DNA of 64,000 bases from Dictyostelium discoideum (taxonomy: Eukaryota), in NCBI GenBank assembly GCA_000004695.1, contig CM000152.2, positions 2,816,001-2,880,000 on the forward strand. The letters are read 5' to 3'. Shown here piece after piece: positions 12,198-58,621 of the stretch. The notes under the pieces were generated by a model. That model saw only the letters and a program-made list of their open reading frames with translations. It ran no database searches and was not told where the DNA came from. The position numbers were made by a program, and so were the translations under genes. Every line of letters starts with the position of its first letter. The stretch's first letter is position 1.

Positions 12198-12239
<42 letters not shown>

Positions 12240-12704: not shown

Positions 12705-12735
<31 letters not shown>

Positions 12736-17405: not shown

Positions 17406-17701
17406 TTATAATACAAATAATAAAATAATTAAAATTACAAAAATAGATGAACATAAAGAATTTCTTTGGGTAACTCTATTTGAAGTATTGAATGATTCGG
17501 ATGATGTTTCAGTGGAATTAATTGGAGATTTTGTTGGTTTTTCTGTTGGTATTGGAGTTTGTGTTGGAGTTGATGTTGAATTTGGTTGAGTTGGAGATGG
17601 GGTATTTGTTGGTGTGCTTGTTGGTTCCTCCGTTGAAATACTTGAGGATTGCTCTGGGGTTGAATAACTTCCATTATTTTCATGACTATTACCATCGGTT
17701 T

Positions 17702-17799
<98 letters not shown>

Positions 17800-20991: not shown

Positions 20992-21554
20992 AAAAACCCT
21001 TTTCTTGACACAAAACATCAACTTATAAACCAACACCATAATAAATTGATATCGCAAAGATATAAAAAACCTATTGTTTTTTTTTATTTATATTTTGCAA
21101 TATAAAAAGAAATGATAACTTAAAAAAAAAAAAATTTAATATAAGTTACTAATTAAAATTTAGTATTAAATCTTTTAAAAAATAGGTATTCCAAATAAAA
21201 GAAAAAAAAAATAAAAAAAATAAAAACCCAAAAATAAATAAACAATGAGATGGTTGTATACATTTATTATTAAAACTAAAAAATAAATAATTAAAATATT
21301 ATTTTCTATTCCTTTTTTAAAATTTTTTTAAAAAAAGAGTTACAATATATTCTTTTTTTTATCTTTTTTTTTTTTTTACATTAATCTATGATTAATTTTT
21401 ATATTTTTTTTTAATTTTTTTTGGCCATGAAAAACGGTAACAAACAACTGAAAAAAAAAAAAAAAAAAAAATTCGAAATAATTTTTCAAATTTTTAACTC
21501 GATATTTTTTAATTTTTTTTTTGAATAATCGTTGTTAGTTTTCACAAATACACA

Positions 21555-22533
21555 ATGGTACGTTCTATCTGATTTCACACACGTTATCACATATCACATG
21601 TCGGAACTATGACAGTCTTGACATAATCCATTCAATATTCATTCAATCTATCAAATTAATAAAGGATTGAACAATATCAATACATAAAATAAAATAAAAA
21701 AAAAATATAAAGAGAGAGAGAAAACAGTTACTAACATAACAATATCATAGGCCATCGATAAATCCAAAAGATTCTTAAGAAAGACCGGTAGAAAGACTTT
21801 AGTCTCTCAAAATCCATACCATGCACTCTTAGTCAAAGTTTGTATTTTAATAATTACATAATATAGGTTAGGATAAATGATATTATATAGGATGAAAAGG
21901 ACAGCAATTAATTGATATTTATTTTATATTTTAGTTATACCGTTTCTTAGCCCGTAGAACCAACTCCAAGTTCAACAAGGTTGTCTTAAAGAGATTATTA
22001 CAAACTAAAACCAATAGACCACCAGTTTCAATCTCAAGAATTGCCAATTTAATGAAGGACAGAAAGAGCGGTAAGATTGCTGTTTGTGTTGGTACCGTTG
22101 TTGATGATGAAAGGTAAGTTGTTAAATAAAAAAAAAGATATAAGAAAACAGAGATTAATTGAAAATAAACAAAATATAGATTATTAGACTGCCCAAAACT
22201 CACTGTTTGTGCATTAAGATTCACTGAAACTGCTCGTTCAAGAATCGTCAAAGCTGGTGGTAAAGCATTATCTTTCGATCAATTCGCTTTAGTTAGACCA
22301 AGAGGTAACAACACTTTCTTAATCAAAGGTGTTACCAAAGCTAGAGAAGTCTACAAACATTTCGGTAGAGCTCCAGGTTTACCAGGTTCCCATGCTGTAT
22401 GTATAATTTTATAAAGTCTTATAATTTTTAATTAAAACTCAAACACTAATACATTTATCTTTTAATTTAAATAGCGTCCTTATGTCCGTTCAGAAGGTAT
22501 TAAATTCCAAAGATCAAAGACCAGAAATCCATA
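21555..22533 (+). CDS. rpl18: 60S ribosomal protein L18 (eL18), five exons: 21555-21557, 21751-21837, 21935-22113, 22180-22396, 22474-22533 (181 aa)
   Basis: The ATG is followed at once by GTACGT. The spliced product is '[51 protein letters not shown]...[97 protein letters not shown]'. It aligns along its whole length with eL18 (human: [78 protein letters not shown]). Minus-strand ORF 21931-22251 is its antisense artefact. Confidence 0.85.
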
Positions 22534-25133: not shown

Positions 25134-28100
25134 ATGACCAAATTTCTTTTTATTTTATTAATTTCTTACTTGTTAATTATAAATGCTATCAAAGGTCAAT
25201 TAAATACTCAAAATGGTATGAAAAAAAAAAAAAAAAAAAAATAAAAAGAAAGATATTTGTTTACTAATTATATTTTTTTTTTTTTTTTATTTATTTTTTA
25301 AACATTTATTTCATTTAAAAAGGACAATGCCTTACTAATATTTATTCAAATTTAGAATTAAGTATTGATCCAGTAGATTATTGTTCATTAAATTATGCAA
25401 GTTGTAATGGACAATTTGTTACTGGTTTGTAAGTAAAAAAAAAAAAAACTAAGAATTAAAATTTCAATAACTAATTATTTTAATTATTTATTTAACTTCT
25501 TTTTATCTTATATACAAAAAAAGAAACATAAACTCATATACATCTACATACGAATTTTCTCAAGTTGATTTTCAATGTTTTTCAAAGCTTTCAACACTTT
25601 TTCTATCAAATTTAAAAATTTCATTTGATTTTTTGGAAGGACCACTCCCTAATGGAATTGCTCTTTCCTTTCAAAATTGTTCTACAACTTATAATACTTT
25701 TTTTAATACACCAATTCATTCAAGTATAGTTCATTTATCAATTGATACAATACCTCCACAGTCATTACCTATTAATATTAACTTATCATTCCTTAATAAA
25801 GTTAGTTTTTTGTAAGTATTTTGCCAAAAAAAAAAAAAAAAAAAAGTTATCCTATTAATATTATTTATAATTTAAAATTCAAAACCTAAAATTAATTTAT
25901 TATTTTTTTTTTCTAAAAAATAGTTTATTTAGATTGAAAAAATTGGATTCATCCACCGATAATATTACATTGATTAATGATTTCCCAGTTGATAGTATGA
26001 ACCAATTTTCTCAAATAGTAATTGATATTAAAGATTTACCACCAATGGATAATGTTATTGTTGAAAGTCTAAGTTTAAGAACTTATAATGCACCCACTAA
26101 TAAAGGATACAATAATATTAAAACTTTAAAGAATATTTCTTATTTGTATATTTTCATTGAACAGGGATATTCAGATTTTAGTGAATTTGCTTTAATTCCA
26201 AATCAAAATAACATAAAACAATTGTATATATTTTTTTTAAAATTATTATTATTAATAATATTATTATTATTATTTTTCCCAATTATTAATAAAATATGTA
26301 TTATTATCTTTATTATTATTACTTTTTTAATAAATTAGATCATTTTCAGGAAATTTATCACCAGCATCAACAGGTAGAATTGATTTAAGAAATTTATTAA
26401 AATTGAATTTATTAAAATTAATGTCAGTTTCACTAAATTTTAATTATCAAGGTAATATTCCACTTATTCTACCACAAACAGTTCAACATTTTCAGATTTC
26501 AGAGGGTTTATTTTCAGTTGGAGTAAAAGAGTTTTTGAATGCTTATCCAAATATCTCTGAGGTTTATATCTTAAACAATCAAATGGATGGTAATTTTTCA
26601 GAGTGGAAAAATAGAGGTTATGATCAATTTTCTATAAGTGGGAATAGATTTCAAGGAACTGTTGACTCGTCATGGTGTGCCACAATAGCAACATTATCCA
26701 GAAATAAATTGACAGGTGATTTACCATCATGTTTTGCTTGTCATTTGTATAGTACACTAATTAATAGTTCAATATCTCAAAATCATTTTAATCCTATTCC
26801 ACCATGTACAACTTTAATACCAAATCTTAGATTCAATTCATCAAGTAATCTATTATATCTATATGGTGATGACTTGGGTTTCTACACAAATGATATTAAA
26901 GTAACTTTATCAGAAACAAAATTTTTCAATCCTTTAATTTATTCAAAATTATTTTATTGTGATGCATTTACTCTATCAAATTTACCAGAAACTTTAGATA
27001 TATTTTTTAAAAGTGCAAATAAAAATTTCACATTATCAACAATTGAAAAATCACCATTAGTAAATTTAGTAACTGTTGCATCTTCATCTGGTTTGTTATT
27101 TTTTGATGGTTCATTTTTTAATTATAATAAATCATCAATTAAAATTCAAATTGAAGATTTAACATGTTTAATTACTCAAACTACATTTAATCAAATCAGT
27201 TGTCTAATTCAAGGATTTTATAATAAGAATTCAATTGCTAAAATTTCAATTTCAGTAGAAAGTTATTACACCAGTAATTTAAAAAATTTACAAACAAACC
27301 TTTTTGCTTATTTAAATCAATCAACAACTGTTTATAGTTGTTCATTAGATTGTAACTCACTTGGTGGTATTTGTAATACATTAATTGGTCAATGTTCATT
27401 TAATTGTCCAAATGATTGTACAAATTCTTTGGCAGGTACATGTAATAGTTCAACAGGAGTATGCAATTGTTATACTGATTTTCAAGGTTTAGATTGTTCA
27501 TTACCATTTAAAGCTTGTACATCAGATTGTAGTTCACCATTAAGTCAAGGTTCATGTAATAATCAAACTGGTATTTGTCAATGTATACCAAATTATCAAG
27601 GTTTAAATTGTAAAATTCCATCACATTATATTTCATCAGTTATTCCATGTTCAATTGATGGTGGTGAAGTTTTAATTAATGGTTGGTTTGGCAATAATAA
27701 TGATGGTACACATTTATTATCATCATATAATATAGTTATAGGTAGTTTAGATTGTATTGTTACATCAATTAATGAAACAACAATTACATGTAATCTTGGA
27801 GCAGGTACAGGTACAAAAAATATTAAAATTATAAATTCAATTAATCCAAATGTAATTTTCAATGGTAATGGATTATTTAATTATCAAAATCCAATTAAAA
27901 CTTGTCCAAATAGTTGTACAAGTTTAAATAATGGTAAATGTAATTCAAATACAGGTGAATGTCAATGTAACGATAAATTTAGTGGTTTCGATTGTAGTAC
28001 ACCAATTAAAATCATTGAAAGTGCACCATCAACAAATACATCAATCAATAAAGATACAGGAGGTATAGAACTTACCAATCAAGATACAATCTATGAAATT

Positions 28101-28877
28101 TCAATTATATCATTAAATGAAATTTCAATTGATGGTTCAATTATTAAATCACATCAATTAAAAGGTAATTGGTCAAGCGATAATACAACAATAACACCAG
28201 ATTCAAATTATTTCAAATTTTCACAACAATTAATTAATAATACATGTAAAATTACATTTACTATTGAAGAGATTAAATTAAAAGATAAGAACTTTACATT
28301 TGGAACGACAACGTTTAAAGTTGAAAAAGATTCAATAAAATTATCAGTTTTAATTCAAGATTATCAATATCAAAGTTCATTAAATACATTACAATTAATA
28401 TTTTATTCAGCAGTTGGGGATGATACAGACTCAAATGATGATTGTAATAAACAAGATACATCAATTGATACATCAAATGCAAATAATCAACAAATTTCAA
28501 ATTATATTCAAATTTCTAAAAATTCAAAAACATTAGTCGGTCGTTTCATTAATCAAGTAATTGCAGATTCAAGATCAACTTTTATGTCAAGTACAATTAT
28601 TAAAGATAATAATAATAATTCATCATCATCAGTTATGTTAGGATTAAATCTACCACATTGTAAAGAATGTTTAATTGATCCAGACTTTTCTGTATTAGTA
28701 AGTCCAGATTTTAAAGAATCATGCAATGAATCAAAAAACAAATGGCTAATACCTGTCGTTGTCATTGTACCTGTAGTAGGTTGTGCTGTAATTGTTACTC
28801 TATCTATTGTTTTTTTTAAAAAATATAAATATAATTTAAAATTTATTGCAATCAAATTAAAACCATTTAAAAAATAA
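25134..28877 (+). CDS. Array member A: five-exon gene (~25134-25215, ~25323-25428, ~25524-25811, ~25924-26230, ~26339-28877) for a type I membrane protein with signal peptide, LRR-like region, 3+1 EGF-like repeats, IPT/TIG domain, TM helix and short tail
   Basis: Exon 1 'MTKFLFILLISYLLIINAIKGQLNTQN' ends at GTATG. The small exons end at GTAAGT/GTATAT donors and keep phase. Exon 5 (ORF 26403-28877) has the Cys spacing of EGF/tenascin-type repeats (CNSLGGICNTLIGQC, CPNDCTNSLAGTCNSSTGVCNCYTDFQGLDC, CTSDCSSPLSQGSCNNQTGICQCIPNYQGLNC). It has an IPT/TIG-like segment (PSHYISSVIPCSIDGGEVLINGWF...SLDCIVTSINETTITCNLGAG). The TM helix is WLIPVVVIVPVVGCAVIVTLSIVFF and the tail is KKYKYNLKFIAIKLKPFKK. Confidence 0.75.
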
Positions 28878-29222
28878 TAAAATAAAAAAATATTTTTTCA
28901 TTTTTTTTTTCATTTTTTTTTTTTAATTGAATCTAATACATATATCAAATTTTTATTTTTATTAATAACTTTTTAAAAAGTTATTATTATAATTCTTGTT
29001 GGTTTTAAAAGACTGAAAACGTAACCAAATAAAAAAAAAATCTGAAAAAAAAATCTAGAAAAATCTAATTCAGAGAAAAACCATAAATCAAAATTGTTTT
29101 TTTTTTTTTTTTTTTTTTTTTACATTTTCAATCATAATTATTTTTTTTTTTACTTTTTCATTGCCCAAAATTTTTTATTTTATTTTAATTTATTTTATTT
29201 TTAACAAAATATATTTAATATA

Positions 29223-30397
29223 ATGAAATTTCTTTTGATTTTATTTATTTCCTATTTAATAATAAATTTAGTTAAGGGTCAATTAAATTTACAAGAGGGT
29301 ATGAAAAATAAAAAATAAAAAAAAAAAAAATTATTTTATTACTCACCCCTTTTTTTTTTTTTATTTTATTTTTTTTTTTTCACACCCACATCAATTAAAA
29401 GAACAATGCCTTGGTCAAATATTTTCAAATTTGGGTGTTAATATTCAAATATCAGATTATTGTTCATCAAATTATGCAGTTTGTAATGGACAATTTGTTA
29501 ACGTTTTGTATGTAAAAAAAAAAAAAAAAAAAAAATTAATATTAAAATTTCAATAACTAATTATTTATTTTTAAATATTTATTTAATTCTTTTTACCTTA
29601 TATAAAAAAAAAGAGATATAAAATCATATACATCTACACACGAATTTTCTCAAATTGATTTTCAATGTTTTTCAAAGGTTACATCAATTAGTATTTCAGA
29701 TTTAAAAATTTCATCAACATTTTTAATAGGACCATTCCCTAGTGAAGTAGCACTTTCCTTTAGTAATTGCTCTACTACTTATAGTAATTTATTTTCAACA
29801 ATAATCAATTCAAATATAATAAGTTTGTCTTTTTATAAAATAGATCCACTTCAAATATCAACTACTATTAATATCAAATTATCATACCTTAATAGAGCAT
29901 CAATTTTGTAAGTTTTTTTTTTTTTTTTTTATATTTTTTATATTTTTTTATTTATTTACAATTTATTTTATTTATTGATTTGTTTTTTTATTTTTTTTTT
30001 ATTCTTTTTTTTTTTTATTTTTTTTTTTTAGTGTTTTTAGTTTGATAAATGTAGATTCATCAACTAATTATATCATATTGATCAATGATATCCCAGCTGA
30101 AAGTACGAAATCATTTACTCAAATTTCAATGGATATTAAAGATTTACCACCAATGGATAATATTATTTTGAAAGGTCTTAGTCTAAGAACTTATGATTCA
30201 CCTACTAGTAAAGGATACAGCAATATTCAAACTTTAAAATATATTACAAGTTTGAATATAATAAATATTCTAGGATATTCAGATTTTAATCAATTTTCTT
30301 TAATTCCAAATCAAAATAACTTTAAAACAATGTATTTATTATTATTTATTATTATTTTTTATTATTTATTTAATTTATATTAATAATAATAATAATT

Positions 30398-30428
<31 letters not shown>

Positions 30429-32982
30429 TAGATCATTTACAGGAAAATTATTACCAACACCAGCAGGAATAATTGATTTAAGAAATTTATCAGGATTAGA
30501 ACTATTAAAATTATCGTTGGTTTCATCAGATTTCAATTATCAGGGTAATATTCCACTTAATTTACCACAAACAGTTACAAGTTTTGATATTTCTGGTGGT
30601 TCATTTTCAGTTGGTGTAAAAGAGTTTTTGAATGCCCACCCAAATATCTATACTGTTTTTATCACAAGTAATCAAATTAATGCTAATTTTTCAGAATGGA
30701 AAAATAGAGGTTATGATCAATTTTCTATAAGTGGGAATAGATTTCAAGGAACTGTTGATACATCATGGTGTACCACAATAATAACTATTTCCCAAAATAA
30801 ATTGACAGGTGATTTACCATCATGTTTTGCTTGTCATTTGTATAATGCATATATTAATTTTACAGTATCTGAAAATCTTTTTAATCCTATTCTACCATGT
30901 ACAACTTTAATACCAAATCTTAGATTCGATTCATCAAGTAATATATTATATCTATATGGCGATGACTTGGGTTTCTTTGATATTGATATTAAAATAGTTT
31001 CATCACCAACAAACTTATTCAATCATTTAATTTATTCAAAATTATTTTATTGTGATAAATTTACTCAATCAAATTTACCAGAAATTTTAACTTTAGATTT
31101 TACAAGTGCAAATAAAACTTTTATATTATCAACAGTTGAAAAACCACCATTGGTAGATTTAGTCACTGTTGCATCTTCATCTGCTTTATTATTTTTTGAT
31201 GGATCATTTTTTAATTATAATAAATCATCAATTAAAATCAAAGTTGATGATTTAACATGTTTAATTACTCAAACTACATTTAATCAAACTAGTTGTCTAA
31301 TTCAAGGATCATATAATAAGAATTCACTTGCTCAAATTACAATTACAGTAGAAAGTTATTATACTACTAAATTAAAAATATTACAAACAAACCTTTTTGC
31401 TTATTTAAATCAATCAACAACAGTTTATAGTTGTTCGTTGGATTGTAACTCACTTGGTGGTATTTGTAATACATTAACAGGTCAATGTTCATTTAATTGT
31501 CCAAATGATTGTGCAAATTCTTTGGCAGGTACATGTAATAGTTCAACAGGAGTATGCAATTGTTATACTGATTTTCAAGGTTTAGATTGTTCATTACCAT
31601 TTAAAGCTTGTACATCAGATTGTAGTTCACCATTAAGTCAAGGTTCATGTAATAATCAAACTGGTATTTGTCAATGTATACCAAATTATCAAGGTTCAAA
31701 TTGTAATATTCCATCACATTATATTACTTCAGTTATTCCATGTTCAATTGATGGTGGTGAAGTTTTAATTAATGGTTGGTTTGGCAATAATAATGATGGT
31801 ACACATTTATTATCATCATATAATATAGTTATAGGTAGTTTAGATTGTATTGTTACATCAATTAATGAAACAACAATTACATGTAATCTTGGAGCAGGTA
31901 CAGGTACAAAAAATATTAAAATTATAAATTCAATTAATCCAAATGTAATTTTCAATGGTAATGGATTATTTAATTATCAAAATCCAATTAAAACTTGTCC
32001 AAATAGTTGTACAAGTTTAAATAATGGTAAATGTAATTCAAATACAGGTGAATGTCAATGTAACGATAAATTTAGTGGTTTCGATTGTAGTACACCAATT
32101 AAAATCATTGAAAGTGCACCACCAACAAATACATCAATCAATAAAGATACAGGAGGTATAGAACTTACCAATCAAGATACAATATATGAAATTTCAATTA
32201 TATCATTAAATGAAATTTCAATTGATGGTTCAATTATTAAATCACATCAATTAAAAGGTAATTGGTCAAGCGATAATACAACAATAACACCAGATTCAAA
32301 TTATTTCAAATTTTCACAACAATTAATTAATAATACATGTAAAATTACATTTACTATTGAAGAGATTAAATTAAAAGATAAGAGTTTTACATTTGGATCG
32401 ACAACGTTTAAAGTTGAAAAAGATTCAATAAAATTATCAGTTTTAATTCAAGATTATCAATATCAAAGTTCATTAAATACATTACAATTAATATTTTATT
32501 CAGCAGTTGGAAATGATTCAAATTCTAACAATGATGATTGTAATAAACAAGATACATCAATTGATACATCAAATGCAAATAATCAACAAATTTCAAATTA
32601 TATTCAAATTTCTAAAAATTCAAAAACATTAGTCGGTCGTTTCATTAATCAAGTAATTGCAGATTCAAGATCAACTTTTATGTCAAGTACAATTATTAAA
32701 GATAATGATAATAACTCATCGTCATCAGTTATGTTGGGATTAAATCTACCACATTGTAAAGAATGTTTAATTGATCCAGACTTTTCAGTATTGGTAAGTC
32801 CAGATTTTAAAGAATCATGCAATGAATCAACAAATAAAAACAAATGGTTAATACCTGTCGTTGTCATTGTACCTGTAGTAGGTTGTGCTGTAATTGTTAC
32901 TCTATCTATTGTTTTTTTTAAAAAATATAAATATAATTTAAAATTTATTGCAATCAAATTAAAACCATTTAAAAAGCAATAA
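29223..32982 (+). CDS. Array member B: five-exon paralog (~29223-29298, ~29403-29508, ~29607-29906, ~30037-30337, ~30432-32982), 821-aa main exon
   Basis: Same architecture as A. Signal peptide is MKFLLILFISYLIINLVKGQLNLQE. The 3' ~1.6 kb is nearly identical to A, C, D and E. The N-terminal part is ~80% identical to A and >95% identical to C. Confidence 0.75.
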
Positions 32983-33211
32983 AATAAAAAAGAATTTTTC
33001 ACAATTTTAAAATTTATTGCAATCAAATTAAAACCATTTAAAAAAAAAAAAAAAAAAAAAAGAATTTATTATTTATTATGTTGGTGACTCTATAAACTTG
33101 ATTGTTTTGGAAAACCAAAAAAGCATGACCATTTAGAAAATGCAAATTTTATATTTTCACCAAATATTCACAAGATTCACTCAACATTTTAGATTATCAT
33201 TATAGTCACTA

Positions 33212-33259
<48 letters not shown>

Positions 33260-33428
33260 TGGAATCTAATCGATAAATCAAATTTTAATTTATATTAATA
33301 AATTTCTAAAAAGTAATTATTATAATTTTTATTCGTTTTAAAAAATTGAAAATGTGAGTAATCAAAAAAAAAAAAAAAAATCTGAAATAATCTTTAATTC
33401 AGAGAAAAACAATAAATATCCAAAATCG

Positions 33429-33459
<31 letters not shown>

Positions 33460-33524
33460 TTCCTTGCCCAAAATTTTTATTTTATTTTATATTTTTTTAT
33501 TTTTAGCAAAATATATTTTATATA

Positions 33525-33813
33525 ATGAAATTTCTTTTGATTTTATTTATTTCCTATTTTGTAATAAATGTTGTCAAGGGTCAATTAAATTTACAAGAGG
33601 GTACGAAAAATAAAAAAATAAAAAAATAAAAAAAATTATTTATTACTCATCCTTTTTTATTTTTTTTTTTTTTTTTTTTCACACCCATCCACATCAATTA
33701 AAAGAACAATGCCTTGGTCAAATATTTTCAAATTTGGGTGTTAATATTCAAACATCAGATTATTGTTCATCAAATTATACAGGTTGTAATGGACAATTTG
33801 TTAGCGTTTTGTA

Positions 33814-33860
<47 letters not shown>

Positions 33861-36800
33861 AGGAATAAAATTCCAAAAACTAATTATTTATTTAAATTAT
33901 TTGTTTAACTTCTTTTTAAATGTTTAATAAAAAAAAAGAAATATAAAATCATATACATCCACACACGAATTTTCTCAAGTTGATTTTCAATGTTTTTCAA
34001 AGGTTATATCAATTAGTATTTCAGATTTAAAAATTTCATCAACATTTTTAGAAGGACCATTCCCCACCGAAGTAGCACTCTCCTTTCACAATTGCTCTAC
34101 TACTTATAGTAATTTATTTTCAACAATAATCAATTCAAATATAACGTATTTGTCTTTTGATAGAATAGATCCACTTCAAATATCAAATACTGTTAATATC
34201 AAATTATCATACCTTAATAGAGCGTCAATTTTGTAAGGTTTTTTTTTTTTTATATTTTATTTATTTTATTTATTAATTTATTTATTTATTTATTTATTTA
34301 TTTATTTTTTTAAAAAAAGTATTTTTAGTATTATAAAAGTAAGTTCATCATCTGATTATATCATATTGATTAATGATATCCCAGCTGGTAGTACGAAATC
34401 ATTTACTCAAATTGCAATGGATATTAAAGATTTACCACCAATGGATAATATTATTTTGAACGGTCTTAATATAAGAACTTTTAATTCACCTACTAGTAAA
34501 GGATACAGCAATATTCAAACTTTAAAATATATTACAAATTTCTATATTTTCATTAATCAAGGATATTCAGATTTTAGTGAATTTGCTTTAATTCCAAATC
34601 AAAATAACTTTAAAATAATGTATTTATTATTATTTTTTAAAAAATCATTATTTATTTAATTTATATTAATAAAAATAAAAATAATAATAATATAATATAT
34701 AGACAAATGGCAGGAAATTTATCACCAACACCAACTGGAATAATTGATTTAAGAAATTTATCAGGATTAAAACAATTAATATTATCGTTGGTTTCATCAG
34801 ATTTCAATTATCAAGGTCATATTCCACTTAATTTGCCACAAACAGTTAAAAATTTTCATATTTCCGATGGTTCATTTTCAGTTGGTGTAAAAGAGTTTTT
34901 GAATGCTTATCCGAATATCTCTATTGTTTCTATCCCAGGCAATCAAATTAACGCTAATTTTTCAGAATGGAAAAATAGAGGTTATGATCAATTTTCTATA
35001 AGTGAGAATAACTTTCAAGGAACTGTTGATTCATCATGGTGTACCACAATGACAACTTTATTAAAAAATAAATTGACAGGTGATTTACCATCATGTTTCG
35101 CTTGTCATTTGTATAATGAATATATTAATTTTACAGTATCTGAAAATCTTTTTAATCCTATTCTACCATGTACAACTTTAATACCAAATCTTAGATTCGA
35201 TTCATCAAGTAATATATTATATCTATATGGTGATGACTTGGGTTTCTATGAAACTGATATTAAAATAGTTTCATCACCAACAAAATCATTCAATCATTTA
35301 ATTTATTCAAAATTATTTTTTTGTGATAAATTTACTCAATCAAATTTACCAGAAATTTTAACTTTAGATTTTACAAGTGCAAATAAAACTTTTATATTAT
35401 CAACAGTTGAAAAACCACCATTAGTAGATTTAGTCACTGTTGCATCTTCATCTGCTTTATTATTTTTTGATGGATCATTTTTTAATTATAATAAATCATC
35501 AATTAAAATCAAAGTTGATGATTTAACATGTTTAATTACTCAAACTACATTTAATCAAACTAGTTGTCTAATTCAAGGATCATATAATAAGAATTCACTT
35601 GCTCAAATTACAATTACAGTAGAAAGTTATTATACAACTAAATTAAAAATATTACAAACAAACCTTTTTGCCTATTTAAATCAATCAACAACAGTTTATA
35701 GTTGTTCGTTGGATTGTAACTCACTTGGTGGTATTTGTAATACATTAATTGGTCAATGTTCATTTAATTGTCCAAATGATTGTACAAATTCTTTGGCAGG
35801 TACATGTAATAGTTCAACAGGAGTATGCAATTGTTATACTGATTTTCAAGGTTTAGATTGTTCATTACCATTTAAAGCTTGTACATCAGATTGTAGTTCA
35901 CCATTAAGTCAAGGTTCATGTAATAATCAAACTGGTATTTGTCAATGTATACCAAATTATCAAGGTTTAAATTGTAATATTCCATCACATTATATTACTT
36001 CAGTTATTCCATGTTCAATTGATGGTGGTGAAGTTTTAATTAATGGTTGGTTTGGTAATAATAATGATGGTACACATTTATTATCATCATATAATATAGT
36101 TATAGGTAGTTTAGATTGTATTGTTACATCAATTAATGAAACAGAAATTAAATGTAATCTTGGAGCAGGTACAGGTACAAAAAATATTAAAATTATAAAT
36201 TCAATTAATCCAAATGTAATTTTCAATGGTAATGGATTATTTAATTATCAAAATCCAATTAAAACTTGTCCAAATAGTTGTACAAGTTTAAATAATGGTA
36301 AATGTAATTCAAATACAGGTGAATGTCAATGTAACGATAAATTCATTGGTTTCGATTGTAGTACACCAATTAAAATCATTGAAAGTGCACCACCAACAAA
36401 TACATCAATCAATAAAGATACAGGAGGTATAGAACTTACCAATCAAGATACAATATATGAAATTTCAATTATATCATTAAATGAAATTTCAATTGATGGT
36501 TCAATTATAAAATCACATCAATTAAAAGGTAATTGGTCAAGCGATAATACAACAATAACACCAGATTCAAATTATTTCAAATTTTCACAAAAATTAATTA
36601 ATAATACATGTAAAATTACATTTACTATTGAAGAGATTAAATTAAAAGATAAGAACTTTACATTTGGAACGACAACGTTTAAAGTTGAAAAAGATTCAAT
36701 AAAATTATCAGTTTTAATTCAAGATTATCAATATCAAAGTTCATTAAATACATTACAATTAATATTTTATTCAGCAGTTGGAAATGATTCAAATTCTAAC

Positions 36801-37250
36801 AATGATGATTGTAATAAACAAGATACATCAATTGATACATCAAATGCAAATAATCAACAAATTTCAAATTATATTCAAATTTCTAAAAATTCAAAAACAT
36901 TAGTTGGTCGTTTCATTAATCAAGTAATTGCAGATTCAAGATCAACTTTTATGTCAAGTACAATTATTAAAGATAATAATAATAACTCATCGTCATCAGT
37001 TATGTTGGGATTAAATCTACCACATTGTAAAGAATGTTTAATTGATCCAGACTTTTCAGTATTAGTAAGTCCAGATTTTAAAGAATCATGCAATGAATCA
37101 ACAAATAAAAACAAATGGTTAATACCTGTCGTTGTCGTTGTACCTGTAGTAGGTTGTGCTGCAATTCTTACTCTATCTGTAGTTTTATATAAAAAATATA
37201 AATATAATTTAAAATTTATTGCAATCAAATTAAAACCATTTAAAGAATAA
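33525..37250 (+). CDS. Array member C: five-exon paralog (~33525-33600, ~33705-33810, ~33925-34235, ~34330-34620, ~34702-37250), 847-aa main exon
   Basis: Near-duplicate of B including ~300 bp of 5' flank. Exon 1 donor is GTACGA. TM helix is WLIPVVVVVPVVGCAAILTLSVVLY. Confidence 0.75.
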
Positions 37251-37322
37251 AAAATAATTTTTTTTAAAATCGCTTGTGTTTGAAATTATCTATATCTGCC
37301 CTATATTTATGGGTCTTAGATA

Positions 37323-37358
<36 letters not shown>

Positions 37359-37583
37359 CCTATTTATGTTTTATCTAATTAAATGCCAAAATAAAATGGT
37401 GTGTTATTGTTGAAGGATTCAAAACCCCAAAAAAAAAAAAATAATAAAAAATCAGACTCTTTGAAAAACTGGGTCTCATTAGTAGGATGGCGTAACCCTT
37501 ATTTTTTTTTTATTTCTAAACTTAATTCTTCAATTTTTTTTATTACTTTCTGAATGTGCAACTATTTTTTATTTTTTTTAATG

Positions 37584-37616
<33 letters not shown>

Positions 37617-38260
37617 ATAAGAAATGGTTACATTTATTTTTTATGTCATTTTGTGTATTTTTGAAGGAGATTTCTATTTATCATACTAAATTCATATTAA
37701 AAATAAATAAAATTAAATTTTTGTTCAAAAAAAAATGAAAAATGAAAATATTTTTTTTTATTTCAAATGCCAATGTTTTTATCTTTTTAAATTTTCTTTT
37801 TTTATTTTTTTTTTTAAAAATAACGCCCTTTAAAATAAATTTCTTCAATTATTAAAAAAATCAACGTAAAAAGTTTTTTTTCATATAAATTTTTATTTTT
37901 TTTATTTTTTTTTTTTATTTTTTTTTTTTATTTTTTTTTATTTTTTTTTTTTTTTTGTTTTATTTTATTTTTTATTTTATTTTATTTTATTTTATTTTAT
38001 TTTATTTTATTTTATTTTATTTTATTTTATTTTATTTTATAATTAAAATTGGCAAATTAATATGAATATTCAATTTTTATGTAATATTTTTATTTTTCGT
38101 CGAATAATTTGATATTTATAGGTTCCGTTTGATTTCTCGTTTAAATTTTCTTTTTTTTTTCTATTTTTTTTTTTTGGGATTGAAAATCTAAAAAATTATT
38201 TTTTTATAAAAAAAAAAAAAAACGATGATTTTTCATTAAGCAAACAACCAAAAAGTCGTG

Positions 38261-38397
38261 ATGATCAAATTTTTTACCATTTTAATTATATATTCTTTGT
38301 TGTTATTAAATTTTACCAAAGGTTCGACATTAGAGGACAGTGAAAGTATGAATAAAAAAAAAAAAAAAAAAAAAAGAAAATTCACAATACTAAATAT

Positions 38398-38430
<33 letters not shown>

Positions 38431-39055
38431 GATCACAAAAAAGAAATATGCTTAGATCATCTTTTATCAAATTTAGGAATAAATACTGTTATAGATTGTT
38501 TAAATAGTAATATTGTAGTATGTTCTACAAATAACCTAGGGACATTTGTTAGTGGTTTGTAAGAATGAATAAAAAAATAAAAAAAAAATAAAAAAAAAAA
38601 ATAATTCTATTAACATTTAATTTTTTATTACATTTTATTTAATTATTTATTTTATTTTATTTAATTTTGTTTTATTTTATTTTATTTTATTTTATTTTAT
38701 TTTATTTTATTTTATTTTATTTATTAGAGTTTTAAAATCAAACAATAATGCATACCAAATTTCTTCACTTGATTTTCAATGTTTTTCTAAGATTTCACAA
38801 GTTACTATTTCAAATTCAAATATTTCATCATCTTTTTTAAGAGGAAATACAACCATTGAATTCATTTCTTTTTCTAATAATACCATCGAATATAATGAAT
38901 TATTTTCATCACAAATTAATACAAAATTAAAAAATGTTTTTATTACTAATATACCACCACCAAATTCTCAAATTAATATTAATTTTTCAATAATTGCTTC
39001 CTTATCAAATTTGTAAGTTTTTTTTTTTTTTTTTTTTAATTTTTAATTCTTATTA

Positions 39056-39149
<94 letters not shown>

Positions 39150-39519
39150 CATTTTTATTAATATTATTTAATTAATTAAAATTGTTTTTTAAAAAAAGAC
39201 AATTTCAATTGAATACTTGGGGTGAGAATAGTAGATATATATCATTGATTAATGATTTTCCAGTTGGAGGAATGCGTCCAATCCCAAGTTTAGCAATGGA
39301 TCTTAAAGATATACCACCCATGGATAATGTTAAATGTGGAAGTGTTACTTTTAGAGCCTACGATTCACCTTCAGCTTTGGTTTTAGCATTTCCTAACATT
39401 AAAAAATATAAATTCAATTTATTTATACATTGCAAGAGGAACTTCAGATTTTACCCAATTTAGTTTAATTCCAAATGATAATTTTATATATACAATGTAT
39501 GTTTTTATTATTATTATTA

Positions 39520-39597
<78 letters not shown>

Positions 39598-42358
39598 TAT
39601 TATTTATTATTATTATTTTTATTATTAAAAAAGAACTAATTTATAATATTATTTTTTTTTTTTTTATTTTAAAAAAAAAAAAAGATTCTTTAATGGAGCT
39701 TTGATTTCACCATCTATTGTTGATTTAAGAAATTTAACTATATTAAATTATATTGATTTAAGAAATGTTATTTTAGATTTTAATTATCAAGGTAAAATTC
39801 CTCTTATTCTTCCTCAAAGTGTTACTAGTCTTGGTATTAGTGGAAGTTCTTTTTCTAGTGTTAATGAATTTATAGGAAATTATCCAAGAATTTCAACGAT
39901 TGCAATTTCTTTTAATCAAATTCCAGATAATTTTACAGAATGGAGAAATAGAGGTTATGCATCATTTGATGTAAATAATAATAAACTTCAAGGAACTATT
40001 GATTCGTCATGGTGTACTACTGTTTTAAAGATTGGTGATAATCAATTATCAGGTAAATTACCTTCTTGTTATACTTGTCATTTATTAAGTGATTATGTTA
40101 AATTTATGATTATTGGTGGTAAAAATTCATTTACAAATGTAGATCCAATACCAGAATGTACAACTTTAATACCAAACCTTAGATATAATTCCTCAACAAA
40201 AGAACTCACTCTATATGGTGATGATTTAGGTTTTTATACTGAAAATGTTATAGTACCAGGTTTTGATTATTCATTTTCTCCAAAGATTCAATCGAAATTA
40301 TTTGTAGCTAGTAATGTAATTCAATATGATTTACCCCAGATTTTAAATTTTAAATTTCCAGGAGCAAATAAAACATTTACATTATCAACAATTCAAAAAC
40401 CACCCATTATAAATACAGTAATAGCAACGGTTCAATCCTATTCTGTTATTTTAGAAGGATCATTTTTCAACTATAATATATCATCAATTGAAATCTTTAT
40501 TGGTGATGTTCAATGTTCAATAGTGTCTGCAACATTTTATAAAGTTGAATGTTTAACATTTGAAACATATGAGAAAAATATAATTGGAAAAGTTTCAATT
40601 AATATTAAAGATTATTACTATAGCAATTTAACAATATTAGAAACATCTGTAATTGCATATTTAAATCAAACTACACAAATTAAAAATTGTCAATTAGATT
40701 GTATCTCACTTGGTGGTTTTTGTAATACATTAATTGGTCAATGTAATATTGATTGTCCAAATAATTGTACTGGTTCATTATCAGGTACTTGTGAAAGATC
40801 AACAGGAGTTTGTATTTGTAATATTGGTTATCAAGGTATTGATTGTTCAGTACCAATTCATTCTTGTCCCTCAAATTGTAATGCTCAATCCAATCAAGGT
40901 ACATGTAATTATCAAAATGGTATTTGTCAATGTTCTCCAAATTATCAAGGTTTAGATTGTTCATTACCATTTAAAGTTTGTACATCAGATTGTAGTTCAC
41001 CATTAAATCAAGGTTCATGTAATAATCAAACTGGTATTTGTCAATGTATACCAAATTATCAAGGTTCAAATTGTAATATTCCATCACATTATATTACATC
41101 AGTTATTCCATGTTCAATTGATGGTGGTGAAGTTTTAATTAATGGTTGGTTTGGTAATAATAATGATGGTACAAATTTACTATCATCATATAATATTGTT
41201 ATAGGTAGTTTAGATTGTATTGTTACATCAATTAATGAAACAGAAATTAAATGTAATCTTGGAGCAGGTACAGGTACAAAAAATATTAAAATTATAAATT
41301 CAATTAATCCAAATGTAATTTTCAATGGTAATGGATTATTTAATTATCAAAATCCAATTAAAACTTGTCCAAATAGTTGTACAAGTTTAAATAATGGTAA
41401 ATGTAATTCAAATACAGGTGAATGTCAATGTAGTGATAAATTTAGTGGTTTCGATTGTAGTACTCCAATTACAATCATTGAAAGTGCACCACCAACAAAT
41501 ACATCAATCAATAAAGATACAGGAGGTATAGAACTTACCAATCAAGATACAATCTATGAAATTTCAATTATATCATTAAATGAAATTTCAATTGATGGTT
41601 CAATTATAAAATCACATCAATTAAAAGGTAATTGGTCAAGTGATAATACAACAATAACACCAGATTCAAATTATTTCAAATTTTCACAAAAACTAATTAA
41701 TAATACATGTAAAATTACATTCACTATTGAAGAGATTAAATTAAGAGATAAGAGTTTTACATTTGGAACAACAACGTTTAAAGTTGAAAAAGATTCAATA
41801 AAATTATCAGTTTTAATTCAAGATTATCAATATCAAAGTTCATTAAATACATTACAATTAATATTTTATTCAGCGGTTGGAGATGATACAAATTCAAATT
41901 CAAATAATGATTGTAATAAACAAGATACATCAATTGATACATCAAATGCAAATAATCAACAAATTTCAAATTATATTCAAATTTCTAAAAATTCAAAAAC
42001 ATTAGTCGGTCGTTTCATTAATCAAGTAATTGCAGATTCAAGATCAACTTTTATGTCAAGTACAATTATTAAAGATAATAATAAATCATCTTCATCATCA
42101 TCATCATCATCAGTTATGTTGGGACTAAATCTACCACATTGCAAAGAATGTTTAATTGATCCAGACTTTTCTGTATTAGTAAGTCCAGATTTTAAAGAAT
42201 CATGCAATGAATCAACAAATAAAAACAAATGGTTAATACCTGTCGTTGTCGTTGTACCTGTAGTAGGTTGTGCTGTAATTGCTACTATATCTATACTAAT
42301 GTATAGAAAGAATAGATATAGAATACAGCTTCTCAAACTAAGAACTTTTAAAAAATAA
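38261..42358 (+). CDS. Array member D: five-exon paralog (~38261-38345, ~38441-38549, ~38712-39011, ~39200-39489, ~39679-42358) with 4+1 EGF-like repeats; exon 4 carries a 2-nt deletion that gives a premature stop, so it may be a pseudogene
   Basis: Signal peptide is MIKFFTILIIYSLLLLNFTKGS. Exons 1-3 and exon 5 (ORF 39701-42358, 885 aa) are intact and in phase. Exon 4 reads '...SPSALVLAFPNIKKYKFNLFIHCKRNFRFYPI*' in the entering frame. The frame needed for exon 5 reads 'FLTLKNINSIYLYIARGTSDFTQFSLIPNDNFIYTM', which matches paralogs A-C. Compared with gene A, the gene D sequence is 2 nt shorter at ~39395-39420. Intron 4 holds two long (ATT)n arrays. Confidence 0.65.
39058..39155. repeat. (ATT)n microsatellite in intron 3 of gene D; a second array lies at 39497-39600 in intron 4
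   Basis: Direct reading. Confidence 0.9.
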
Positions 42359-43637
42359 AAAAATAAAATAGAAAAAATTTGAAAGTATGGTCCATTTTGG
42401 ATTTTACTTTTTTTTTTTAATGATAATTTTTTTAAATCTCGAAAGACAACCAATTCCAAATGGAAAAATAAAATCTAAACCTAAATTAATTTATAAATTA
42501 ATTTCTTTTAAATAACAATAATAATTTAAAGACAAAAAAAAAAGTTATTTTTAATAAAAAAAAAAGAGAAAATAAATATTATTTATAAAGTTTTTTTTTT
42601 TTTTTATTTTTTTTTTTATTTCCTATGCGGCTCTCCTTTGTTTTTGAAAATGAAATTATTTTTTTTTTTTTAATTATTTAAATGGTAATAAAAATAAAGA
42701 AAAATAAAAAAAAAAAATTACTAGGAGTAGTAGTACCCAGCTATCTCAAATACAAAGCAACATCATACCGCTACTATTACTATCATTATCATTATTATTG
42801 CCATTACCACCATTACCACTACCACACTATTATTACATTATTATTACCATACCACCATTATTATTATTATTACTACTACTATTAACATTACCACATTATT
42901 ATTATTACCACGATTATTACTATTACCATTATCATCAGCAATATATAAAAAAAAAAGATTCAATAGACTGACATATAGAATTTTCAATTTTGTACTGTTG
43001 TTCCAATTCTTGTCTCAGTTTCAATTTACAAATGTTCAATCACAGTAGAAATTATTTGGTACATGCCTTTATCGTTTTCTATCTTTTTCTTTTTCTTTTT
43101 TTTGTTGTTCTCTATGTTTTTCATTCTCTTTTTCGCAATGCTGTTGAAGATGATGGTGATGATGTTTATCCTCTGATCTAATTATTATTATTATTATTAT
43201 TTTTATTGGGAAAGGTTATGGTTGTTGATTTTGTTGGTGTTATTATTATAGATGCTTCTTTATTACTACTACTAAACCTTCATTTTTACTGGTTGTTTTT
43301 AATTAAAACAAAAAGAAAAGAAAAGAAAAAATAAAAAAATAATAAGTTTTGGATTGTTGTTTGGTTTTTTTTTTTTTTTTTTTTTTTTCCAAAAACCCAT
43401 TAAAAAATTTTTCCACCCCCCAAATTTTTTTAATTATTTGAAAAGTTTAATAGTTTTGGTATTTGATGTCTAGTTTTAATTTTTTGTTTTTTTTTATCTT
43501 AGGATAATAAAAAAAAAAAAATAAGAAATAAAAAAAAAAAAAAAAGAATGGATGTTGTTGTTTTTTTTTTTTTATTTTCACAAAAATAGCATTCATATAA
43601 TTTTTTTTATTTAATTGTTTAGCTCTTTGAAAGAACA

Positions 43638-46328
43638 ATGACAAAATTAATTACAATATTAATATTTTTTTTTTTATTATTTAATGTTATTAAAAGTTCT
43701 TCAACTGACCAAAGTATGTAGGAAAAAAAAAATAAAAAAATAAAAAACAAAAAAAAAAAAAACTTATATTTAAAAACTTTTTTTTTTTTTTTCATATTTA
43801 TTAAGATTGCTTGAATACTCTTAAAAATCAATTAAATGTAAAAGAATGTATAATTTGCCAAAAGGAAAATTGCATAAATACATTTGAATCATGTATTTCT
43901 GGTGATGAGGAAAATTTAAGTGTGTAGGTTTAAATTAATAAATAAAATAAATAAAAAAATAAATAAAAAAAAAATAAAAAAAAAAAAAATAAATAAATAA
44001 ATAAATAAATTAATAAATTATTATTATCACTAATTTTTGAAAATGTAATTTTTTTAATAGATTCTTAGACCAAATTCCAATTGATAGATTTGATCCTACA
44101 TGTTTTAAAAAGGTCAAAGAATTAACCATAAAAAACTTGAATTTTACAGAGTATTTGGATTCATTCAATGGTACATCTATTTCACTTATTGATTGTACTT
44201 ATGATAATTTAAATTCAATTAAGCATAATAAGATATATTTAACACATCTAAATATTACTAATTTAAAAACACAAGAGATTGGGGATATTGCTATTAATTT
44301 TATTAAAACCTTAATAGGATTTAAATCTATTTCTTATTTTTCATTTACTTTCAGTAATATTATCGGGGATTTCTCTGAATTCACGGCCGTGTTGGAAAAT
44401 TTAGAAATTAAAAGTTTTGAAATAAATAATAATCAACTTGTTGGAACTATTAATTCATCATGGTGTAATACCCTTTTAAAAATTAATAATAACAAGTTAT
44501 CCGGTGAATTACCATCTTGTTTTACATGTCATATTTATAGTGATTACGTTAAAAGTATGATTATTACTGGAAATAAATTTACAAATGAAAATCCAATAGC
44601 AGATTGTAAAACTTTAAAACCAAACCTTTTTTATAATTCCACTAGTCGCGAACTGTATCTCTATGGTAAAGATTTAGGTTTTATATCTGATGATATTAAA
44701 AATGATAAATATACTTTCAATTTAGAGAAACCTTCGAAATTATTTATAGCAACTAATGTAAATGAATCAGATTTACCAAAATATTTAAATATTACCTTTT
44801 CAGGAGCAAAAAAAGAATTTTCATTATCTACAACCAAAATAGCACCAATTGTATCCTCGATAACAATTTCAGAAATATTAGATTCAATAACCTTTACTGG
44901 AACAAATTTAAATGATCCACCACCAATTTCAATCTTGATTGGTGATAAAAATTACACAGACCTAAATTTTAATTTTAATCAAGTCCAATGTAAAATTCAA
45001 AGATTAAGTTATGATGATGATTTTGTAATCGTTAAAATTATTAATGGAGATGATTTTTACAAATTCAGTACTACTATATATACATATATAAACCAAAGCA
45101 TACAAGTTGATTATTGTTCAAAAGTTTGTAAAAAACTTGATGATGGTGTTTGCATTAAAATAAAAGAATATTGTGGTGGTGGAAATATAATATCAAATTC
45201 TTGTACTTCTTCAACAGCAGGCGGTTGTAATTGTTCAAATGATTTTCAAAATTCTTTTTGTTCCTATATACCTTGTCCTATGGATTGTAATTCTGAATCT
45301 AACCAAGGTATATGTAATTATCAAACTGGTAAATGTGAATGCCTACCATATTACCAAGGTCTGGATTGCTCTTTACCAAATAAACCCTGTAATACCAATT
45401 GTAGTTTTGATTCCGATCAAGGTAAATGTAATACTCAAACTGGTAATTGTGAATGCTCACCAAATTTCCAAGGTAAAAATTGTGAATTACCATTAAAATA
45501 TTGTTCATCAGACTGTAGTGCACCATTAAATAAAGGTTTTTGTAATGATCAAACTGGTATTTGTCAATGTTTTCCAAATTATCAAGGTTCAGATTGTTCT
45601 TTACCATTAAAAGTTTGTACATCAGATTGTAGTTTCGATTTAAATCAAGGCTGGTGTAATAATCAAACTGGTACTTGTCAATGTAAACCAAATTATCAAG
45701 GTTCGGATTGTAAAACTCCATCACATTATATTACATCAGTTATTCCATGTTCAATTGATGGTGGTGAAGTTTTAATTAATGGTTGGTTTGGTAATAATAA
45801 TGATGGTACAAATTTACTATCATCATATAATATTGTTATAGGTAGTTTAGATTGTATTGTTACATCAATTAATGAAACAGAAATTAAATGTAATCTTGGA
45901 GCAGGTACCGGTACAAAAAATATTAAAATTATAAATTCAATTAATCCAAATGTAATTTTCAATGGTAATGGATTATTTAATTATCAAAATCCAATTAAAA
46001 CTTGTCCAAATAGTTGTACAAGTTTAAATAATGGTAACTGTAATTCAAATACAGGTGAATGTCAATGTAATGATAAATTTAGAGGTTTCGATTGTAGTAC
46101 ACCAATTAAAATCATTGAAAGTGCACCATCAACAAATACATCAATCAATAAAGAAACAGGAGGTATAGAACTTACCAATCAAGATACAATATATGAAATT
46201 TCAATTATATCATTAAATGAAATTTCAATTGATGGTTCAATTATAAAATCATATCAATTAAAAGACAATTGGTCAATTTATAATATAAATGATGAATCAA
46301 CAACAAAAAGAACAACAACAACAAAAAG

Positions 46329-46380
<52 letters not shown>

Positions 46381-47067
46381 GATTTCAATAATATATTCAT
46401 GTTTTCACAAAAATTAATTAATAATACATGTAAAATTACTTATACCATAGAAGAGATTAAATTAAAAGATAAGAACTTTACATTTGGAACAACAACGTTT
46501 AAAGTTGAAAAAGATTCAATAAAATTATCAGTTTTAATTCAAGATTATCAATATCAAAGTTCATTAAATACATTACAATTAATATTTTATTCAGCAGTTG
46601 GAAATGATTCAAATTCTAACAATGATGATTGTAATAAACAAGATACATCAATTGATACATCAAATGCAAATAATCAACAAATTTCAAATTATATTCAAAT
46701 TTCTAAAAATTCAAAAACATTAGTCGGTCGTTTCATTAATCAAGTCATTGCAGATTCAAGATCAACTTTTATGTCAAGTACAATTATTAAAGATAATGTA
46801 AAATCATCATCAATTATGTTAGGATTAAATCTACCACATTGTAAAGAATGTTTAATTGATCCAGACTTTTCAGTTTTGGTTAGTCCAGATTTTAAAGAAT
46901 CATGTAATGAATCAACAAATAAGAACAAATGGTTTATACCAGTCATTGTCGTTGCACCTGTGGTAGGTTGTGCTGCAATTCTTACTCTATCTATTGTTTT
47001 GTATAGAAAGAACAAATATAACATTAAAATTGCTTCTGAAAAATTAAAATCTTTGAAAAGGAAATAA
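43638..47067 (+). CDS. Array member E: three-exon paralog (~43638-43714, ~43809-43921, ~44063-47067) with 6+1 EGF-like repeats and a poly-Thr insertion; it lacks the introns that separate exons 3, 4 and 5 in A-D
   Basis: Signal peptide is MTKLITILIFFFLLFNVIKSSSTDQ. Donors are GTATGT and GTAGGT. Exon 3 runs without interruption into ORF 44137-47067 (976 aa). The N-terminal half is strongly diverged but keeps the GELPSCFTCHIYS / LPNLFYNSTS..LYLYGKDLGF framework. There are extra Cys-rich repeats at 45240-45720. (ACA)n encodes TTKRTTTTKRT(T)17 at ~46300-46380. The 3' 1.3 kb is nearly identical to A-D. Confidence 0.75.
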
Positions 47068-48347: not shown

Positions 48348-51597
<3,250 letters not shown>

Positions 51598-58517: not shown

Positions 58518-58621
58518 TGAGTTTGGGGGGGATTGGGATTTGATAAAGTCTGTTTTGTTTTTGAAGGAGGTGTCAGTGCCCCAACCTCTGACATTCCATT
58601 GGTTGATTTTGATTACTACTA

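Follow-up and report, generated by a model that had tools for sequence, protein, structure and literature searches.

The 64,000-nucleotide stretch of Dictyostelium discoideum AX4 chromosome 3 analyzed here (the window; G+C content ca. 20%) carries at positions 25134-47067 five paralogous genes, A to E, in tandem and in the same orientation. By their domain content the five are uncharacterized members of the known ComC family of surface proteins, and the array is very probably one of ComC-family receptors in which an internal block of the coding sequence, the core, has been overwritten by interlocus gene conversion; the function of the receptors is inferred. The pattern itself is one of domain-restricted concerted evolution, and gene conversion is its inferred cause.

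The long open reading frames (ORFs) of the window are 100% identical to D. discoideum AX4 proteins, the big exon of C belonging to DDB_G0280003 and that of D to DDB_G0280029. Spliced models were obtained by exact threading of the annotated proteins, by aligning A and B with C at its splice sites, and, for D and E, from orthologues of other strains (Table 1). The best match of gene A, at 89%, had raised the idea of a strain other than AX4; this was rejected, as A and B sit inside the cluster of C in the 90%-clustered protein collection. Four of the five genes were already annotated in AX4, and E is newly modeled here. The annotated protein of B (P0071, 1086 aa) equals the present model minus 22 cytoplasmic-tail residues that precede the last residue. 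An earlier reading of the window made from the letters alone (the sequence-only reading) had proposed five co-oriented paralogues, and the gene models, all with introns, bear out their number and their positions. Genes A, B and C have runs of 30-50 A nucleotides in their second intron, and introns 3 and 4 of D are filled with long (TTA)n / (ATT)n microsatellites (39050-39150, 39510-39600).

Within AX4, the proteins fall into three head types: A/B/C, D and E. Protein identity in the head is 69% between A and B (the sequence-only reading had put the N-terminal ectodomains of this pair at ca. 80%), 70% between A and C and 87% between B and C; it is 45% between A/B/C and D, and just 33% between A/B/C and E. 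The core, which extends from the second TIG-like domain (TIG2) to the last residue before the transmembrane (TM) helix, is 93-98% identical among the AX4 paralogues, and in the TM helix and tail, identity between the three head types is back at 58-68%. In the DNA, different types are ca. 55-65% identical up to a sharp boundary and 94-99% identical beyond it, until identity falls off once more at the TM segment; the 3' flanks of the paralogues are not alignable. The homogenized core measures ca. 1.15-1.3 kb and lies inside the last exon, and B and C are moreover 95-100% identical from 30741 onward. The near-identity, which the sequence-only reading had extended from the IPT domain through the stop codon, thus ends before the TM helix.

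Synonymous sites follow the same partitions (Nei-Gojobori estimates per partition of synonymous divergence, dS, and of the nonsynonymous to synonymous ratio, dN/dS). Between types, the heads have a dS of 0.56-1.0 and a dN/dS of 0.6-0.9; in the core these values are 0.08-0.13 and 0.14-0.34, and in the TM segment and tail dS climbs back to 0.2-0.48. For gene A against the other paralogues, dS is 0.05-0.13 in the core and 0.15-1.0 in the head. As synonymous divergence falls five- to ten-fold in the core, constraint at the protein level cannot produce this pattern. The 25 parsimony-informative sites of the AX4 core make up seven mutually incompatible partitions that occur in runs, which reads as the footprint of several short tracts. 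The homogenization that the sequence-only reading had supposed is one of the DNA itself, visible both in the synonymous sites and in phylogenetic incongruence.

The array was also compared with the syntenic arrays of four long-read assemblies (FIR, FIW, FIY and FIZ), giving five discoideum-clade genomes with AX4; by accession, the four come from the set of PMC12745789, which regards two of them as diverged D. discoideum isolates and the other two as possible cryptic species. There are five copies in FIR and four in each of the other three; FIR and FIW differ by one B/C-type copy. The head tree displays three deep clades (A/B/C, D and E) inside which the copies follow the strain relationships, whereas in the core tree the FIZ and FIY copies group by genome, with partial mixing among AX4, FIR and FIW. 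In nucleotides, different-type paralogues within a genome differ on average by 40% over the head and by 4.1% over the core; the corresponding means for orthologues from different genomes are 12% and 5.7%. Tails keep their type along with the heads in the orthologues of every strain. Since head and tail stay linked and type-specific, the events that became fixed were internal conversion tracts and not unequal crossovers inside the core, by which heads and tails would be swapped. The three head types are old paralogues, older than the split of the discoideum-clade strains, and the C and D head types also predate the split from D. citrinum.

Similar figures were obtained in more distant species. 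Two neighboring genes of D. firmibasis share 59% protein identity in the head and 99.2% in the core; for the paralogues of D. citrinum these values are 45% and 94%, and for those of D. dimigraforme 46% and 87%. Between AX4 and these three species, core identity is 77-84%. The lineages agree on the limits of the homogenized block, with the 5' boundary in the EGF region at ca. residues 600-640 of C and the 3' boundary at ca. residue 1080; the exception is D. firmibasis, in which homogenization starts near residue 480 and includes the tail. Neighboring ComC-family pairs at unrelated loci also show a gradient, being divergent at the 5' end and nearly identical toward the 3' end (e.g., DDB_G0272364 / DDB_G0272334), and such neighbors were found elsewhere, other species included (P0021-P0023, P0036/P0037/P0040, P0061/P0062, P0045/P0055 and P0041/P0056). 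As other loci repeat it, the conversion pattern is family-wide and not special to the array.

The explanation that we propose is that short-tract interlocus gene conversion repeatedly overwrites the core between neighbors, which would leave near-identical cores in each genome, while selection would remove tracts that reach into heads or tails. Conversion of the core itself would be tolerated or even favored, for example if all paralogues must fit one shared partner, and the core would then serve a function common to all of them. Comparable cases have been described: in the tandem paralogues of mammalian TLR1/TLR6 (PMC2077338) and of the clustered protocadherins (PMC1852091), conversion is reported to homogenize part of the coding sequence and to leave the ligand-binding parts distinct. 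Those are other proteins in other organisms; in the array, the tract is an internal block bounded by the head on one side and by the TM segment and tail on the other, and its boundaries recur across species and loci.

The five proteins are predicted type I surface proteins, heavily N-glycosylatable, in the order signal peptide, plant-type leucine-rich-repeat (LRR) solenoid, beta-sandwich/TIG, three to six EGF repeats, second TIG, one EGF, ComC supersandwich domain (ComC_SSD), TM segment and a basic tail of 17-20 aa. The signal peptides were read from hydrophobic N-termini, and the TM segment from a stretch of 25 hydrophobic residues followed by the basic tail, both by inspection of the sequence. 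In the head, the LRR solenoid (ca. 340 residues, with a Cys-rich cap) precedes the beta-sandwich/TIG modules. With the Pfam hidden Markov models (HMMs), ComC_SSD (PF22933) was matched in A, C, D and E at 182-202 bits against a cut-off of 24 (E about 1e-54 to 1e-59), and the corresponding region of B is 98% identical to A and C. LRR_ComC (PF24141; cut-off 27) scored 52.5 bits in A, 63.2 in C and 54.5 in the D orthologue, EGF_2 scored 30-55 bits (cut-off 22), and TIG was matched in two stretches, residues 505-572 and 714-774, at 18-20 bits, slightly under the cut-off of 20.9. Gene E has a shorter head (three exons), a ComC_SSD match split in two and 5-6 EGF matches. By alignment and by a 114-nt periodicity, the EGF counts are 3, 3, 3, 4 and 6 in A to E, plus one after the second TIG.

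An AlphaFold2 model of the gene C protein, built on 36 homologues, has a mean predicted local distance difference test (pLDDT) score of 78, and ca. 90 in the head. It places the solenoid at residues ca. 50-410, beta-sandwiches at 419-492, 499-583 and 690-773, small EGF modules, a large sandwich at 823-1047 and a C-terminal helix at 1066-1101. Several elements of the sequence-only reading are upheld by these data: the EGF counts, the EGF calls (above the Pfam cut-off), the LRR calls in A, C and the D orthologue, and the general plan of a type I membrane protein whose N-terminal ectodomain varies and whose membrane-proximal part is homogenized. Others need amendment. Its TIG call stays below threshold, and its LRR call lacks an LRR_ComC match in E; where it saw a single IPT/TIG fold, at least two TIG-like sandwiches are modeled (ca. 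499-583 and 690-773 of C) in addition to a further sandwich at 419-492; its membrane-proximal region of ca. 250 aa exists and can now be named as ComC_SSD; and the family, which it could match to no named one, is that of ComC, after which two Pfam domains have been named.

The LRR head gave profile matches to plant LRR receptors at 1e-32 (its LRRs are like those of FLS2, MIK2 and RXEG1), and plexin IPT-containing ectodomains were the leading Foldseek matches of the gene C model. All 69 of the 69 homologues retrieved by a word-indexed search are dictyostelid. A HMMER search of 1.84 billion representatives returned 162 matches at E<=1e-30, most of which align to residues ca. 610-1105 only; the C-terminal module is therefore the signature of the family, while the heads vary. 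The primary comC papers are reportedly those of Kibler et al. 2003. Secondary tables list EGF domains, a signal peptide and a TM segment for ComC, conservation in group 4 dictyostelids only, and aberrant aggregation as the mutant phenotype. Compared at the level of domains and not of the ComC sequence, the array proteins and ComC have LRR_ComC, EGF repeats, the supersandwich, a signal peptide and a single TM segment in common, with the exception of gene E, in which LRR_ComC is without a significant match. The restriction of ComC to group 4 is paralleled by the purely dictyostelid homologues of the array. Of these proteins, ComC is the one with a described mutant phenotype.

The LRR head would bind ligands or surfaces. 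The cytoplasmic tail of 17-20 residues contains no domain, catalytic or kinase; such a short, domain-free tail suggests a role as adhesins, or else signaling by way of a membrane partner that associates laterally, in a manner resembling ComC. The solenoid is of the same plant type, in sequence and in fold, as that of plant LRR receptors (RXEG1, FLS2, MIK2, BRI1-like, ERL1/TMM) and animal TLRs, and a single TM segment with a short kinase-less tail is shared with plant receptor-like proteins. In plants, a receptor-like protein without a kinase implies a co-receptor. The likeness does not extend to the whole proteins: the array proteins have neither a kinase nor a TIR domain, and plant receptors and TLRs have no counterpart to the stalk of EGF, TIG and supersandwich modules that lies between LRR and membrane. 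One may speculate, although we consider it rather improbable, that the ComC family is a head-diversified LRR receptor repertoire of social amoebae in which gene conversion keeps the constant TIG-EGF-supersandwich core uniform, each paralogue having to dock onto one shared membrane partner, as GLMP does on a transporter. GLMP (PDB 8r8q_B), a glycosylated lysosomal membrane protein and single-pass accessory subunit of the transporter MFSD1, was the best non-LRR structural match of the model; being one fold match on a multidomain model, with no sequence similarity detected, it may serve as a lead for a partner-docking core and not as evidence. If true, the array would provide modular recognition of prey, substrate or other cells, in a system so far undescribed in Amoebozoa and with a logic comparable to that of plant receptor-like proteins that share one co-receptor.

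Two of the genes call for separate comment. Exon 4 of gene D in AX4 contains two single-base deletions relative to FIR, FIW, FIY, FIZ and the AX2 protein, within ca. 10 bp, and the length of the natural model, 3457, is not divisible by 3; an N/I difference of AX4 from AX2 and the four wild strains is found near the lesion. The annotated AX4 model sidesteps the frameshift with artificial introns, begins inside intron 1 (MNKKKKKKKRKF...) and loses the signal peptide. The AX2 orthologue ACTFIT_010815 (P0086, 1138 aa) is intact, reads through the lesion site as SALGFSNILTLKN, and is 100% identical to AX4 over exons 3 and 5, for which reason the lesion is most likely an error of the reference sequence or a mutation private to AX4; D as a true pseudogene was mostly rejected on the same grounds. 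For gene E, no exact or near AX4/AX2 counterpart was present in the protein collection. A word-indexed search with its head gave no match although P0017, which is 79% identical, is in the same database, and this denotes a failure of sensitivity rather than absence; empty results of this kind of search are not to be relied upon for AT-rich, low-complexity Dictyostelium queries. The poly-Thr insertion that the sequence-only reading had noticed in E is real and AX4-specific, three other strains lacking it in their orthologues: aligned to E, the gene C core is split in two (45718-46288 and 46366-46929), and with the E orthologues of FIR, FIW and FIZ it aligns unbroken; for the E-type copy of FIY, the alignment begins only at query position 525. 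Several copies in the other assemblies have split ORFs; these were not taken for pseudogenes, the assemblies being Nanopore-based.

Other explanations of these data were weighed against recurrent conversion. Near-identical 3' halves could in principle result from strong purifying selection, or from one recent duplication or exon shuffle, and the low dN/dS of the core (0.08-0.35) fits the former. We regard this as extremely unlikely: the reduction in the core extends to synonymous sites, cores tend to group by genome in the trees, the informative sites form a mosaic of incompatible partitions, the cores are 77-84% identical between species as opposed to 87-99% between paralogues within a species even though the heads show the paralogues to be older, and a single event cannot explain independent recurrence in five lineages and at other loci. 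Partial decay of the array, with D and E as pseudogenes or on the way to becoming such, appears improbable. It would account for the frameshift of D in the AX4 reference, for the split ORFs elsewhere (unreliable in Nanopore-based assemblies), and for several features of E, namely its absence from the AX4 and AX2 protein sets, a lost cysteine (Cys535), the Thr-rich insertion in the supersandwich, and a head that evolves two to three times faster than those of A and D. However, the AX2 D gene is intact and otherwise identical to that of AX4, and the ORF of E is intact (three exons, 1066 aa) with a constrained core (dN/dS 0.17-0.31). Between AX4 and FIR, core dN/dS is 0.08-0.17, reaching up to 0.4 against other strains; the core is thus under purifying selection, and the genes do not seem to be decaying.

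The sequence-only reading had taken the locus for a possible polymorphic allorecognition or kin-recognition cassette. On that view, diversifying or balancing selection would have made the heads polymorphic labels of self, with a role at aggregation as for TgrB1/TgrC1. A variable head on surface proteins that have TIG-like and EGF modules is in line with such a role, as are a copy number of four or five among the genomes and a head dN/dS (0.42-0.59 for A to E, AX4 vs. FIR) above that of the core and of the flanking RING-finger gene (0.19); the E head is just 79% identical between AX4 and FIR (P0017), with a dN/dS of ca. 1 against FIY, and in some 50-codon windows the nonsynonymous and synonymous counts are at or above the neutral ratio, in numbers too small for a test, so that no claim of positive selection is made from them. 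This role is nonetheless very unlikely. The head lineages are stable orthologues in five genomes, with no trans-specific mixing of alleles; head dS between AX4 and FIR (0.06-0.15) is in keeping with that of the flank (0.124), leaving no room for ancient balanced alleles; overall dN/dS stays under 1; and the closest isolates, FIR and FIW, have 1-4% mismatches across the array and ca. 2% in the flank. The heads thus change faster in protein, with neutral divergence not raised, alleles not ancient and dN/dS not above 1, and exceptional polymorphism between strains, as characteristic of the binding region of Tgr proteins, was not seen; this comparison covers five genomes, and not a sample of one interbreeding D. 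discoideum population. Rosengarten et al. 2015 name DDB_G0279999 and DDB_G0280003 (A and C) solely in suspension_DOWN lists, at ca. 2-4 h into starvation, and in none of the UP lists, and the array genes are not listed in the supplement of a self vs. non-self chimera study. The likeness of the proteins to Tgr proteins goes no further than two TIG-like folds. Both are type I surface glycoproteins of Dictyostelium with IPT/TIG-type folds, and the Tgr gene family likewise evolves by duplication and recombination (PMC12745789). Gene arrangement and domain make-up differ: the array genes are co-oriented tandem copies and not a divergent ligand-receptor pair, and where Tgr ectodomains are characterized by TIG repeats, the array proteins have two sub-threshold TIG matches and consist mostly of LRR, EGF and supersandwich. 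Doubtful, but conceivable, is that growing amoebae use the proteins as receptors for prey, substrate or environment; the diversified LRR heads would recognize ligands on bacteria or surfaces, as TLRs or plant receptor-like proteins do, and the shared core and TM segment would couple them all to one membrane partner. The true plant-type LRRs, the short tail without an enzymatic domain as in plant receptor-like proteins, a core conserved and homogenized in every lineage examined, and the fall of A and C after starvation, suggestive of expression during growth, all agree with it; the expression evidence is weak and indirect, however, the GLMP match is a single one, and ComC, the sole studied relative, has a developmental and not a feeding phenotype.

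Recurrent gene conversion in an array of ComC-family receptors has its own difficulties. Conversion was deduced from a pattern, no event having been observed, and the variable number of EGF repeats could mechanically block the extension of heteroduplexes, tract boundaries set by selection being conjectural. There is no excess of G+C at third codon positions (GC3) in the core (0.06-0.07, compared to 0.06-0.13 in the head) and hence no footprint of GC-biased conversion. The four assemblies other than AX4 are Nanopore-based, and their frameshifts and some of the differences may be errors. How close the array proteins are to ComC is judged from the Pfam models that bear its name, and gene E gave no LRR_ComC match at E<=1. 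In AX4, the otherwise invariant Cys535 of the first TIG-like domain of E is replaced by Tyr and the insertion lies inside the supersandwich; E may be losing its function. The expression lists, which would point to expression of A and C during growth or early starvation, record presence only, with time columns inferred from tab positions, and do not include B, D and E; none of the five gene identifiers is found in the main texts of the literature searched.

The five genes are uncharacterized members of a lineage-restricted surface family, the sole studied member of which affects cell-cell communication. The new point is evolutionary: a sharply bounded internal coding block is kept identical among neighbors, while head and TM/tail remain type-specific. 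The recurrence of its boundaries across species and loci would mark the core as the part that needs uniformity, from which a shared partner is a testable prediction, and the same pattern would mark the LRR heads as the specificity-bearing parts. Two annotations are corrected, the AX4 model of D and the missing E gene, and an unsupported allorecognition label is removed from the locus.

Table 1. Coordinates of the array genes, their parts and neighboring features (window positions; aa, amino acids)
Feature	Position	Strand	Remarks
Gene A (DDB_G0279999)	25134-28877	+	1104 aa; intact ORF; identical to XP_641457; model via gene C splice sites
Gene A exons	25134-25215, 25323-25428, 25524-25811, 25924-26223, 26339-28877	+	
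Gene A Pfam matches	residues: LRR_ComC 78-383, TIG 505-572 (weak), EGF_2, ComC_SSD 824-1045		
Homogenized core of A	27477-28742	+	last EGF, TIG2, EGF, ComC_SSD, juxtamembrane segment; 5' boundary from A/B/C vs. D; sliding identity and block boundaries
TM helix and tail of A	28743-28877	+	A/B/C type KKYKYNLKFIAIKLKPFKK
Gene B (DDB_G0280001)	29223-32982	+	1108 aa in the present model
Gene B exons	29223-29298, 29402-29507, 29614-29907, 30032-30331, 30432-32982	+	
Homogenized core of B	31570-32844	+	sliding identity, block boundaries, dS
TM and tail of B	32845-32982	+	A/B/C type
Gene C (DDB_G0280003)	33525-37250	+	1107 aa; P0001 spliced onto the window with an exact match
Gene C exons	33525-33600, 33705-33810, 33939-34232, 34320-34619, 34703-37250	+	
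Homogenized core of C	35841-37115	+	sliding identity, block boundaries, dS
TM and tail of C	37116-37250	+	A/B/C type
Gene D (DDB_G0280029)	38261-42358	+	natural exon structure from orthologues P0009 and P0012
Gene D natural exons	38261-38345, 38444-38558, 38728-39012, 39199-39496, 39685-42358	+	
Gene D annotated AX4 model	38348-38397, 38728-39012, 39199-39230, 39439-39496, 39685-42358	+	
Gene D exon 4 lesion	39374-39395	+	two single-base deletions
Homogenized core of D	40934-42229	+	5' boundary from A/B/C vs. D; sliding identity, block boundaries, dS
TM and tail of D	42230-42358	+	RKNRYRIQLLKLRTFKK
Gene E	43638-47067	+	1066 aa; intact three-exon ORF
Gene E exons	43638-43713, 43806-43923, 44061-47067	+	
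Homogenized core of E	45637-46929	+	interrupted by the poly-Thr insertion
Gene E Thr-rich insertion	46289-46366	+	78 nt, in frame, inside ComC_SSD
TM and tail of E	46930-47067	+	RKNKYNIKIASEKLKSLKRK
Glycoside hydrolase family 9 (cellulase-like) ORF	17406-19529	-	flanks the array
Ribosomal protein L18 gene	about 21500-22500	+	inferred from synteny with L002 and L004
RING-finger protein	48348-50894	-	flanks the array
Reverse-transcriptase ORF	54918-58517	-	flanks tRNA-Arg(ACG)
Further ORF	58622-59872	-	
tRNA-Arg(ACG) gene	60124-60197	-	
Reverse-transcriptase ORF	60298-62034	+	flanks tRNA-Arg(ACG)

The four long ORFs upstream of the array at 5634-7688 (-), 8517-9716 (-), 3408-4496 (+) and 12085-12960 (-) gave no Pfam match at E<=0.001. 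The neighborhood is rearranged in FIZ, where L18 is located downstream of the array on the opposite strand. The block at 54918-62034 has a G+C content of 35-41% and a strong strand skew, and looks like tRNA-targeted non-LTR retrotransposons of the TRE type; FIR also carries an RVT_1 gene downstream of its array.

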